DNA from: Parachlamydiales bacterium
Lineage (GTDB): Bacteria > Chlamydiota > Chlamydiia > Chlamydiales > JAJFMK01
Direction: 5' to 3'
Assembly (NCBI GenBank): GCA_963765145.1
Contig: CAVXVG010000002.1
Span: 96,001 to 160,000, forward strand
Length of the DNA stretch: 64,000 nt
Shown: in pieces, positions 29,967-32,469 of the stretch
Numbering within the stretch: position 1 is the stretch's first letter
Layout: each line of letters opens with the position of its first letter
Translations under genes and position numbers: made by a program
Notes under the pieces: model-generated
Told to the model about the DNA's origin: nothing
The model's database searches: none
What the model saw: only the letters and a program-made list of their open reading frames with translations

Positions 29967-31304
29967 CTAAGGAAGTGCAACTTTATGTCTCACTTCGACA
30001 ATGAGTGCCTTTTTGGCCAAAAGGTTTATTTTGTCCTCAACTTTAAGCACATTTAAGAAATCTAGATTGGCATCCCATTCATCAAGCAAAAAAATGGCTG
30101 TATCTTGTGAAAAAATGAAATCTATTTGCCTAACTTGGCGCTCTCCAGATGATGCAGCGATATCATGATTCACTAAATTGGCATCAGGCGAAACTAAAAC
30201 CGCCTCTTCGTTGATCGATTTGATAAACCGCAATAAAGAGGATTTTCCAACACCATTTGCACCTGTAATCAAAAACCTACCCCGCTTGAGCTCTTTTGTG
30301 TGCATTTGATCTAAAAATTGCTGGACCGACAAATCACTTTTTTCGTGAACATCAGAAATCCGAATTTTTTCGGGCTCTATTTGTTTTTTTAAATCCTGTT
30401 TCTCTAATTTCTGAACAAAGCATTTCAAGTTGTTCAGTTTCTGCTTCATAAGTACAAATCTACTATTGTACATACTAAGAGAATGCACATTGCCGAATAG
30501 CTGCAAAGATCTAGGTAAGACGGCTACAAAAGCACCTATCGATGCAGCTGTGTGATCAGTCAAAAACATCGTTACAATCACAAACGGTATAGCAATATAA
30601 ATCGGTAAGCATGCAAGGATCTGCTCGGTAATGACATATTTTTCAGAATTTGCAAAATACATTTTCGACTTTGACTGCAAATTGTCGTAAGCCAATTTCG
30701 CCAAAGGTTTATTTCCGAACAGATAATTATCCCAAAGACAGTTTAGTTGGACCAGTGTCAGCAATTTGGAAGATTGGATATTATCTGCCAATCGCATGAT
30801 GCGTTCTTTCAACACTGCTACTAAAACAGCCGAAACAACTAGAGATAGAGCCATTACGCCTGCCATCGTCAAGCCAAGCGTAAGCCCAAAAACTATTAGT
30901 GTGAATATCACATTACAATAAATGGAAAGGAGTCCCACCGAAAAACTGCTAACGTCTTCGAAAGTAGAGGGAGCCTCGCCTGCTAACCAATTCGTTGTAA
31001 GTTGCTGATTTTTTTTTGAAGATAAACTCTGATCTTGTTTGATCGTTTCATACGAGTCAAAGGTGTATTTTTCCCACAGATTATTCTTTAATTTCACTTG
31101 CAACCATTCGACGCATGAACTTAAAAAATACGCCAATAATGCAGCAACAAAAAACAAAGTAATAAAACGCTCTACTTTTAAAATTTGCGCGGAAACAAGC
31201 GATTCGCCAGCCATAGCAATAAAATATGTAGAAATGGCCAGGAATACTTGTTGAAAAACAGTAAAAAGGGCGCACAGTAAAAAGTATCTATTTTTGAGTA
31301 TCAC
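29967..31304 (-). CDS. ABC exporter (TM domain plus compact NBD)
   Basis: About 5-6 TM segments, Walker A GANGVGKS, signature SSGERQ, Walker B FLLDEWDANLD and switch VRH. Confidence 0.8.
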   Translation of the reverse strand: MILKNRYFLLCALFTVFQQVFLAISTYFIAMAGESLVSAQILKVERFITLFFVAALLAYFLSSCVEWLQVKLKNNLWEKYTFDSYETIKQDQSLSSKKNQQLTTNWLAGEAPSTFEDVSSFSVGLLSIYCNVIFTLIVFGLTLGLTMAGVMALSLVVSAVLVAVLKERIMRLADNIQSSKLLTLVQLNCLWDNYLFGNKPLAKLAYDNLQSKSKMYFANSEKYVITEQILACLPIYIAIPFVIVTMFLTDHTAASIGAFVAVLPRSLQLFGNVHSLSMYNSRFVLMKQKLNNLKCFVQKLEKQDLKKQIEPEKIRISDVHEKSDLSVQQFLDQMHTKELKRGRFLITGANGVGKSSLLRFIKSINEEAVLVSPDANLVNHDIAASSGERQVRQIDFIFSQDTAIFLLDEWDANLDFLNVLKVEDKINLLAKKALIVEVRHKVALP

Positions 31305-31308
31305 GTAG

Positions 31309-32082
31309 TCACATAAAGGTTATTATTGCGATAAGAGTTAATAGGCATAACAAAGACAAACCGCTTACACAATAAATAGCTTGTAATTTTCTTTCGTAAT
31401 GAAGTTTAAGGCGAATAGCTTCTTTTAGTTGACGACGTTCTAAATCAGAACGAGCTTCACTAAATGAGCTGATATATGTTTTCAAAAAAGAAAGGCGTGT
31501 TTTAATCTTGTAATGCTTCGGATCAAGAAATATCAAGTCATTCACTGTAAGATCTCTAATCACAAGAACTGGGGTTGGAGTCCTTAACGGAAAATATTCA
31601 GAATGATGAAGACTCTGAGCTGGATTAGTACCCCAGAGAGCTCCTAGCATTAATGATTGATGCACACATTGCTCTTTGCTGTGTAAGTGAATTTCTAATA
31701 ACTTGGTAATGCTGTAGCTTTCAGGAAACAAAACAAGCAACGCTCCAAACTGTTTTTTATCGGTCTTTTTGTGCAGGTAAAAATCCACACACTGACCAAT
31801 AAACTCCTTACTTTTCTTTTCTAAATCATGATTTAGCGAGCTGTCTTCAAAAAACGTAAAGAAAATACGGTCATTTTTCAAAGCGGCTGGGACAAAAGGG
31901 CACATAATCCCTTTCCGATACGGGTGAGGAGAGGTTAAAAAATCTTTCACGTAAGGCAGCACTTCAGCATATGCTTTAGCAGCAAATTCTGGAACGCTAG
32001 AATTCCCAAAGGTATTGATTGTCCAAAAGTTATTTGGAAGGTCGTTATGCATTATTTTTTGTGCATGCCTCAAAAACACCAC
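31309..32082 (-). CDS. DUF6875-like protein with C-terminal membrane anchor
   Basis: PHPYRKGIMCPFVP resembles the HPxLGRxGxVCPF motif; also LMLG and FPLRTPTPVLVIR. Start uncertain (GTG 32082 or ATG 32052). Confidence 0.6.
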   Translation of the reverse strand: MVFLRHAQKIMHNDLPNNFWTINTFGNSSVPEFAAKAYAEVLPYVKDFLTSPHPYRKGIMCPFVPAALKNDRIFFTFFEDSSLNHDLEKKSKEFIGQCVDFYLHKKTDKKQFGALLVLFPESYSITKLLEIHLHSKEQCVHQSLMLGALWGTNPAQSLHHSEYFPLRTPTPVLVIRDLTVNDLIFLDPKHYKIKTRLSFLKTYISSFSEARSDLERRQLKEAIRLKLHYERKLQAIYCVSGLSLLCLLTLIAIITFM

Positions 32083-32105
32083 AGGCCTGCATAGGGCAGG
32101 CCTGT
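32081..32105 (-). terminator. Hairpin/terminator between the peptide gene and the DUF6875-like gene
   Basis: Perfect 10-bp stem ACAGGCCTGC/GCAGGCCTGT followed by GGTGTTTTT on the minus strand. Confidence 0.65.
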
Positions 32106-32159
32106 CTTCAAAGATTTTTCATTTTCCACATAAGGCAAACGGGTATTTTTGCTTCACGC

Positions 32160-32336
32160 CTACCAAGACCAATGCCCTTTAGATGCGGCACAGTTTAAAT
32201 TGACATAATTGCACAGGCGTAAAAATAAGCGAGTAACCCTCCCCCTTTTTTGCCATGTTGAAGAGGTGAAAACTTCGCCGTCAGAATATGATGTAGAAAA
32301 CACTGCTGACTTCGGATCAGAATAAGACTTATACAT
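32160..32336 (-). CDS. 58-aa putative precursor/signal peptide
   Basis: AAGGAG lies 6 nt before the ATG at 32336. Sequence MYKSYSDPKSAVFSTSYSDGEVFTSSTWQKRGRVTRLFLRLCNYVNLNCAASKGHWSW. Confidence 0.55.
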   Translation of the reverse strand: MYKSYSDPKSAVFSTSYSDGEVFTSSTWQKRGRVTRLFLRLCNYVNLNCAASKGHWSW

Positions 32337-32469
32337 AGAGAACTCCTTGTTCAAAATATTTTTCCCAAAATGCTCATCGTCAATTTCAACGAAGTTTGAT
32401 GCTGTCAAAGTCATTTGAAGTTGTCAACCAAAAACGAATGAACAACCTATATCGCTTTTCAGGTAACAG

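Follow-up and report, generated by a model that had tools for sequence, protein, structure and literature searches.

A conserved three-gene cassette of a W-x-W peptide, a cytochrome P422 and an ABC exporter in a Parachlamydiales genome, likely an undescribed RiPP family

The DNA analysed here is a stretch of 64,000 nt from a Parachlamydiales bacterium (contig CAVXVG010000002.1); it is called the window below, and coordinates are window positions unless another contig is named. The initial annotation of this stretch had described three co-oriented minus-strand genes in an AT-rich block and had read them as a candidate pathway for a peptide made on the ribosome and modified after translation (RiPP). 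All three open reading frames (ORFs) were confirmed in the sequence. They code for a precursor peptide of 58 aa (32160-32336), a heme enzyme of the DUF6875 family, now named cytochrome P422 (31309-32052, 247 aa), and, starting 4 nt past the enzyme stop, an ATP-binding cassette (ABC) exporter of 445 aa (29967-31304). The block is indeed AT-rich, with a GC content of 0.378 compared to 0.437 genome-wide, and GC is equally low in 17 of 1057 bins of 2.5 kb.

The peptide gene has the Shine-Dalgarno sequence AAGGAG (32343-32348, minus strand) 6 nt before its ATG, as had been annotated, and because of this the 58-aa start is favoured over an 84-aa extension from 32414, which was set aside. Homologous peptides begin three to five residues ahead of the leader motif, in line with the shorter form. 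The family peptides are 36 to 72 aa long and have a common layout, namely, the leader motif (F/Y)S(D/N/S)PxSxxF (residues 5-13 here, 32298-32324), a basic middle that is helical here, a hypervariable linker that contains Cys in the window peptide, and a C-terminal W-x-W (residues 56-58, 32163-32171), which is W-S-W at the end of the annotated KGHWSW. Only W56 and W58 are invariant among 25 aligned peptides, while S10 and F13 are nearly so. The W-x-W pattern was first apparent in an unfiltered listing of upstream ORFs and was then searched for. It is C-terminal in 42 of 42 distinct tails, a set partly selected by the motif, and 41 of them end at the second Trp. The middle residue is Lys in 20 tails, Ser in 6, Asn in 6, Arg in 5, Thr in 3, Ala in 1 and Asp in 1, and never Pro. 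As a measure of chance, a W-x-W ending is found in 10 of the 47,694 open frames of this genome.

Two other features to which the initial annotation had drawn attention were only partly borne out. Both copies of the doubled SYSD..VF(S/T) unit are present, but only the first is the family motif; the second is not conserved, even in the close homologue P0178, and the doubled unit was rejected as a family feature. Likewise, C42-x6-C49 is there, but the number and place of Cys vary across the family: within the last 32 residues of 43 distinct peptides there are two Cys in 23, none in 13, one in 6 and three in 1. Since 13 of 43 peptides have no nearby Cys, a Cys-Trp bond cannot be general and was rejected as the general target; the paired Cys suggest a disulfide instead. 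Thus, of the Trp/Cys-rich C-terminus that had been proposed as the site of modification, the W-x-W is invariant and the Cys are not.

The peptide gene is a real gene under purifying selection. The ratio of non-synonymous to synonymous substitution rates (dN/dS) was 0.15, 0.19 and 0.23 for three close pairs out of eight; in the remaining five, synonymous sites are saturated. Among the variants listed for a related strain, 11 peptide codons were changed, 8 of them silently, and indels were found only outside the ORF. No Pfam or NCBIfam family matches the peptide and ESM Atlas gave no usable match for it, neither of which is itself proof of novelty. When the peptide profile was searched against 1.84 billion representatives it found 25 proteins, all small and all ending in W-x-W, many of them being the input sequences.

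The assignment of the middle gene to DUF6875 was upheld by a profile search: PF21780 matched at 93.7 bits (cut-off 24.5, E 1.8e-26) over profile positions 3-171 of 178, it was the sole Pfam family at E up to 1, and P450 was not matched. The open frame reaches 32082, as annotated (31309-32082). The start is more likely, however, at ATG 32052 (247 aa) than at GTG 32082, because the GTG is part of one arm of the hairpin and the shorter form, at 247 aa, matches the two nearest homologues (85% and 83% identity) in length; the 257-aa form was set aside. A four-codon mini-ORF (32053-32065, minus strand) ends in TAATG overlapping the enzyme ATG, which is either chance or translational coupling. The annotated HPYRKGxMCPF motif was found as HPYRKGIMCPF, and the membrane anchor as one C-terminal hydrophobic segment (residues 226-244, 31321-31377); such a segment is present in 28 of 32 aligned clade proteins.

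DUF6875 was renamed cytochrome P422 in a preprint of December 2025 (bioRxiv 10.64898/2025.12.11.692455), whose main text describes a Cys-ligated heme family that oxidizes free L-Trp, either by hydroxylation at N1, C6 or C7 or by C-S ring closure. The members characterized there are Mc170 (N1), Ss890 (C6), Ba855/AcmE (C7) and ThnD (C-S), and ZigI is treated in a further source (PMC13307353). The motifs given in the preprint are the heme motif RxGxVCP and three substrate motifs, SBR1 to SBR3, and in the pocket described there Lys and Gln/His hold the Trp carboxylate while Arg, Met and Phe clamp the indole. The corresponding residues of the window enzyme are the heme ligand Cys51 with R46, H122, K126, M135, R166, D172 and F175. 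In a tree of 72 enzyme rows, from which partial rows were excluded, it belongs to a clade of 30 rows with support 100/100, and the other 42 rows are canonical P422s. The heme Arg and Cys and the whole of SBR1, Rx(M/L)x3Dx2F, are retained in both groups; R46, C51, R166, D172 and F175 are present in 30 of 30 clade rows, and the heme motif here reads RKGIMCP, with Met in place of Val. SBR2, Dx2(Q/H)x3K, is incomplete in the clade: Q/H and K/R at 126 are kept in 30 of 30 rows but the Asp is lost, its column being acidic in none of the 30 (Leu, Val, Ser, His or Asn instead) as against 37 of the 42 others. In SBR3 the Glu/Gln has become Ala in 28 of 30 clade rows, and MxGxF reads MLGAL in the window enzyme; the clamp Phe is replaced by Leu in 28 of 30 clade rows and kept in 1, compared to 42 of 42 others. 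Clade enzymes also have a shorter loop before the heme motif. The role of the lost acidic residues is not assigned in the main text of the preprint. From these substitutions we infer that the pocket may be freed from holding a free amino group and may have room for the backbone and a second indole.

The AlphaFold model of the enzyme has a predicted local distance difference test score (pLDDT) of 92.6. Of 48,161 chains compared, the closest in fold is the YqcI/YcgG heme-thiolate enzyme AglA (Z 9.3, root-mean-square deviation 3.8, 144 residues aligned, 8% identity); all rows below it match the C-terminal helices only. With Foldseek nothing was found at E 0.001 or better, AglA entries ranking first at E 0.016-0.049. 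The structure of Mc170 (PDB 9X39) was not among the structure-search matches and may not be in the libraries searched, and a sequence search of solved structures gave no relative, only one chance row at E 3.1. AglA (PDB 9UB3, PMC12866846) has, like P422s, a sandwich fold with a Cys-ligated heme, but the source describes it as N-hydroxylating the arginine guanidine and in the text consulted links it to no precursor peptide. Two clade-like enzymes of 349 and 361 aa (P0030, P0031) include Rieske domains (PF00355, PF13806) that may serve as a fused electron donor; these fusions are in line with an electron need that the cassette does not itself supply.

Between the peptide and enzyme genes there is, as annotated, a perfect 10-bp hairpin followed by a T tract (32081-32105, minus strand; 5-nt loop, with a T5 run starting 4 nt past the stem). 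Folding of the 131-nt intergenic region is more favourable than that of any of 200 shuffled versions (z -4.07), whereas its terminator-like sites, 4 compared to 2.7 +/- 1.6 in shuffles, are not unusual in number. A perfect stem of at least 6 bp lies between the two genes in 17 of 20 other three-gene loci; the position is conserved and the sequences are unrelated. It is likely that the hairpin serves as a leaky terminator or RNA stabilizer giving excess precursor. A sigma-70 scan found 8 sites with 7.7 expected, and no promoter is claimed. Among the sequencing runs listed as containing this DNA none was of RNA, which carries no information about expression.

The model of the third protein opens with the first transmembrane helix, and its transmembrane domain (TMD) is fused to a nucleotide-binding domain (NBD, 29967-30330). 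No C39 match was found, as the initial annotation had said, which sets it apart from the peptidase-containing transporters (PCATs) with their N-terminal C39 domain. The Walker A, signature-like, Walker B, D-loop and H-loop motifs of the NBD are kept (motif positions 348, 385, 406 and 437) and are conserved in 43 rows. The Walker A to Walker B span, however, is 58 aa in the window protein and 58-59 in 41 of 41 measurable family rows, whereas an ordinary ABC ATPase encoded elsewhere in the window has 121. Judged from this spacing, the helical subdomain of the NBD (about 60 residues) is missing across the exporter family while the catalytic motifs are kept. The top Foldseek match is McjD, the microcin J25 exporter (E 1.7e-9), which likewise has the TMD plus NBD fold and no C39 domain, but McjD-type proteins are about 570 aa long compared to about 445 here, the family differs by its short Walker A to Walker B span, and other exporters match almost equally. 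An ABC homologue follows the enzyme in 22 of 32 clade loci. None was found in the DNA examined at the loci of the candidate phyla radiation (CPR), namely, L002 and L011 (Peribacteria and Saccharibacteria), nor at L035.

Homologues of the short-NBD protein also occur in Pseudomonas, Pectobacterium, Xenorhabdus, Klebsiella, Acinetobacter and on Ralstonia megaplasmids. Some are without the enzyme (L079, L080, L106), and at L079 and L080 neither enzyme nor peptide matched. A class-wide search with the ABC profile, scoring four candidates per genome, found 1 of 400 genomes, the seed itself. That genome has a second AT-rich three-gene cassette (G000:C18 40950-43424, minus strand; L105:1451-3925), which consists of a 72-aa ORF, an alpha-ketoglutarate HExxH peptide beta-hydroxylase (TIGR04267, 60 bits, cut-off 40) and a short-NBD ABC exporter that shares 24% identity with the window's. 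It is a candidate second RiPP locus, and since it pairs the exporter with a 72-aa ORF and a hydroxylase, it ties the short-NBD family to peptide cassettes independently.

The initial annotation had proposed that the neighbourhoods of enzyme homologues be surveyed for upstream peptides, and the survey found that enzyme/ABC pairs do carry the peptide gene, conserved and with codon-level purifying selection. A profile of 32 close homologues gave 15 genome loci and 60 metagenome loci, and plasmid and Pseudomonas searches added more. After removal of duplicates (L016, L019, L020, L031, L077, L081-L084, L092-L097, L099) there were 32 distinct clade loci besides that of the window, assigned by tree or motif. 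Twenty-nine of them carry a gene for a 36-72-aa peptide ending in W-x-W (one in W-R-W-I); in two of these, L035 and L078, the peptide was recognized by pattern and annotation and not by the profile. As for the rest, L015 has only a peptide tail beside an enzyme frame that looks split, and L028 and L029 have about 0.5 kb of upstream DNA on the contig, their nearest relatives keeping the peptide more than 1 kb away. In terms of the tree, 28 of 30 clade rows are with a peptide and the other 2 are on short contigs, while the peptide profile matched at none of the 42 canonical rows, many of whose contigs are short. Frames ending in W-x-W near four canonical loci (L038, L052, L073, L074) were taken as chance because they do not match the peptide profile. 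Whole genomes gave a cleaner test: among 401 Pseudomonas genomes, P422 was found in 11, the clade enzyme in 6 and a canonical one in 5, and the peptide profile matched exactly the 6 genomes with the clade enzyme and none of the 5 canonical-only genomes; 17 candidates were scored per genome in this search, so that misses are possible. No Trp-pathway gene or gene of a non-ribosomal peptide synthetase (NRPS) recurs around the cassette loci, unlike canonical P422s.

Some loci depart from the common form. In L014 and L030 the peptide gene is more than 1 kb upstream of the enzyme with another gene between. The peptide of L011 (1532-1696, minus strand) is the only one with a residue after W-x-W, and it pairs with the only clade enzyme (L011:746-1468) that has Arg for the anchoring Lys; the two changes are possibly compensatory, in what is a single case. 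Signs of decay or assembly error are seen in L015 with its peptide tail and split frame, in L033, where the enzyme is in two ORFs, and in L010, where a shortened enzyme has Gln after the heme Cys.

A peptide-enzyme complex, also called for by the initial annotation, was modelled with enzyme residues 1-226, heme and the peptide in three runs, with three controls. The complex scored 0.87 and the best control 0.00; the calibration mark is reached by 116 of 157 solved complexes compared to 2 of 215 mismatched pairs. At least 67% of the contacts were common to the runs, and the partner pLDDT was 50-58. Confident contacts came from the two conserved ends of the peptide only. The leader (peptide residues 5-9 and 12-17) is predicted to contact enzyme residues 30-44 and 152-159 (the clade-conserved YFPLRTPT stretch). 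For the tail, the interface lists include peptide residues 55-58 and enzyme residues 50, 119, 122, 135-145, 172 and 175, which are SBR positions. The best-ranked contact pairs are all from the leader, and the tail is placed in the pocket on the basis of the two residue lists. The predicted arrangement is thus the leader on an exosite of the enzyme and W-x-W in the pocket. The model supports binding but cannot tell a substrate from an inhibitor.

Taken together, the RiPP reading of the cassette is well supported; the cassette is real and conserved, and it is likely an undescribed RiPP family. That the cassette is a RiPP pathway of some kind, whether it makes a cross-link or carries out other chemistry on a single Trp, is in our judgement highly probable. 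Our preferred reading is that the membrane-anchored heme enzyme oxidizes Trp-x-Trp, most likely to a Trp-Trp cross-link, and that the product is exported; we put its probability at roughly one half. A W-x-W substrate fits because the enzyme belongs to a family described as heme Trp oxidases. The cross-link is favoured because both Trp are invariant at i and i+2, because no Pro stands between them, because the pocket appears enlarged, and because there is a precedent in the P450 cyptide synthases. Three of these, KwwB (from Kitasatospora), SmiP and ScaP, are described as linking Trp-C5 to Trp-N1 on a C-terminal WxW, and KwwB is reported to fail with Pro as the middle residue (PMC12797325).

The mechanism that we propose is as follows. 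The enzyme would grip the leader via the surface formed by residues 30-44 and 152-159, and the last four peptide residues would enter the Trp pocket. There K126 and H122 would hold the C-terminal carboxylate, as for free Trp, and the loss of two acidic residues together with the Phe to Leu change would make room for the acylated backbone and the second indole. The Cys51-heme, fed by a host ferredoxin, would form the oxidant, and Trp-x-Trp would be oxidized, most likely into the cross-link. The leader would be removed by a host protease, or by none; no protease gene recurs in the cassette flanks and the window exporter has no C39 domain, so a host protease is possible. The ABC protein would then export the product, which would act outside the cytoplasm as an antagonist or signal, a role that we infer from the exporter and the patchy spread.

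Several points weigh against this reading. Every reaction in the main text of the P422 preprint is a hydroxylation or C-S closure on a small molecule, and none is a biaryl coupling. The score of the complex is a model confidence and not a measure of catalysis, it carries no Fe-indole geometry, and its calibration holds only roughly here because custom alignments and a riding heme are outside the calibrated setup. The cassette encodes no protease and no redox partner. Ten of the 32 clade loci are without an ABC homologue in the DNA examined, Microbacterium-type loci have a major facilitator superfamily (MFS) gene in place of the ABC gene, and the scores of MsbA, PCAT1 and CydDC are close to that of McjD, so that peptide exporters are not singled out. 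The peptide gene is 3' of the enzyme gene in three loci (L002, L035 and, on the opposite strand, L011), and the W-R-W-I end of the L011 peptide means that a free Trp carboxylate is not universal. Finally, the peptide sets were partly chosen by the W-x-W pattern, and the profile was built in part from four of the six peptide-bearing Pseudomonas genomes (all but G261 and G291).

The strongest rival keeps the same RiPP logic with other chemistry: the last Trp would be hydroxylated at N1, C6 or C7, or otherwise oxidized at a single indole, and the first Trp would serve recognition only. In one variant a Cys thiol or a backbone nitrogen would attack after N1-hydroxylation. These are the reactions recorded for the family in the preprint, where 7-hydroxylases also take N-acetyl-Trp and where the C-S bond is proposed to arise by N1-hydroxylation and subsequent thio-Michael addition. 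The carboxylate anchors are kept in the clade, and a pair of Cys is found within the final 32 residues of 23 of 43 peptides. Such chemistry is possible, but it leaves unexplained why both Trp are invariant at a fixed spacing amid varying neighbours and why the Phe clamp is lost, and the Cys variant would not extend to the 13 peptides without Cys there. An unlikely alternative is that the peptide binds the enzyme as a regulator or inhibitor, or is a secreted peptide that stays unmodified, while the enzyme oxidizes free Trp or a different indole for export. Placed in the pocket, the W-x-W tail could mimic a substrate, which the complex model would not distinguish, and all but two of the catalytic motifs of free-Trp P422s are present. 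However, the pocket has changed throughout the clade and in step with the presence of the peptide, the linker ahead of W-x-W shows the hypervariability common in RiPP cores, and the Trp-pathway and NRPS neighbours of canonical P422s do not recur. Trp codons, a terminator-like hairpin and a Trp enzyme in that order are also the layout of an attenuator, but that the ORF is a Trp-sensing leader peptide of the TrpL/TnaC type controlling hairpin read-through into a Trp hydroxylase-exporter operon is very improbable because the peptide gene is downstream in L002 and L035, downstream on the opposite strand in L011, and more than 1 kb upstream past an intervening gene in L014 and L030, and because peptides of 36-72 aa share an N-terminal motif predicted to dock on the enzyme.

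A fuller form of the cross-link reading, which we hold somewhat more tentatively, is that this P422 clade is a leader-dependent peptide cyclase, a heme-thiolate fold other than P450 that convergently makes a Trp-Trp biaryl ring on a C-terminal W-x-W, and that it defines a new RiPP class carried as a 2.5-kb cassette in Pseudomonas, CPR bacteria, actinobacteria and an environmental chlamydia, with a minimal ABC exporter lacking the helical subdomain of the NBD. Darobactin has a W-N-W motif, a radical S-adenosylmethionine (SAM) maturase and BamA as its target. It resembles the proposed cassette product in being a RiPP of Gram-negative bacteria with W-x-W, but no radical-SAM gene is present here, the motif is at the extreme C-terminus and there is no sign of a common target. 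The P450 cyptides of PMC12797325 resemble the cassette in having a heme-thiolate oxidase next to a short precursor that ends in WxW, and one peptide here has, like KwwA, one residue beyond WxW. They differ in that the enzyme here is no P450 by sequence or fold, that KwwB comes from Kitasatospora and the present loci mainly from Pseudomonadota, CPR bacteria and a chlamydia, and that the cassette has its own short-NBD exporter, so a cross-link, if real, would be convergent. The described P422s, for their part, share with the clade PF21780, RxGxxCP, SBR1, the Q/H and Lys of SBR2 and the Met and Gly of SBR3. As far as the main text of the preprint goes, those proteins use free Trp or small indoles as substrates, in NRPS, tryptophan dioxygenase (TDO) or tryptophanase contexts, unlike the clade, which lacks Asp in SBR2 and Glu/Gln and Phe in SBR3, is mostly membrane-anchored at the C-terminus and is paired with a W-x-W peptide. 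That main text mentions RiPP, ABC or membrane nowhere (0 each), and a clade member may be among the 103 enzymes synthesized in that work. No description of the cassette was found in literature searches, in which subscription journals were mostly missing.

Outside the system, the cassette is flanked on the left by a gene for an outer-membrane protein like the major outer-membrane protein (MOMP; PF05150, 28747-29853, minus strand) and on the right by one for a HerA-like ATPase (DUF87/HerA_C, 32749-34998, plus strand). The MOMP-like neighbour is in keeping with the chlamydial source of the DNA. G001, a complete genome from the same genus, lacks the cassette at this site: the MOMP-like gene adjoins the HerA-like gene and the flanking genes are about 170 bp apart. 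Because of this empty site and the low GC, the evidence points to a cassette that was gained, with loss in G001 as the alternative. Neither 60 relatives nor 399 further genomes of the phylum yielded the clade enzyme. The only other P422 in the phylum sample (L098, G695) is canonical, has one TGA inside the match and is without a peptide. Searches of viral contigs found no relative of the enzyme or the ABC protein. The loci are mainly in Pseudomonadota and also in CPR bacteria, actinobacteria and this chlamydia. Nothing else recurs in their flanks unless the loci are closely related, and settings with a transposase, integrase or relaxase or on a plasmid are often seen. The initial annotation had called such a system unexpected in a chlamydial genome; it is in fact no chlamydial speciality, being rare, mobile and best represented in Pseudomonas.

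At the left edge of the cassette there is a tandem repeat of three copies of about 10 nt (29915-29940), near the end of the similarity to G001. Between the cassette and the HerA-like gene lie about 300 bp (32450-32750, GC 0.458) with several palindromic stretches, absent from the empty site of G001; contigs compared to the window show loose ends there, and it is possibly a repeat element or insertion scar. Elsewhere in the window, a release factor 3 ORF (41966-43054, 362 aa) matches only profile positions 3-349 of 529 and looks truncated or frameshifted.

RiPP classes are defined by their maturases. If the proposal is right, this would be the first P422 linked to a ribosomal peptide, within the literature that could be searched, and it would extend a family described in December 2025 from free amino acids to peptides. 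An enzyme of 247 aa for which a short leader suffices and which accepts a highly variable linker would offer a compact way to produce indole-bridged or hydroxy-Trp peptides. The short-NBD exporter family is a marker for further hidden peptide cassettes and has led to the second one in this genome; it also raises the question of how an ABC ATPase works without the helical subdomain. For the bacteria themselves, peptide cassettes in host-dependent lineages such as the CPR and this chlamydia point to chemical interactions that are as yet undescribed.

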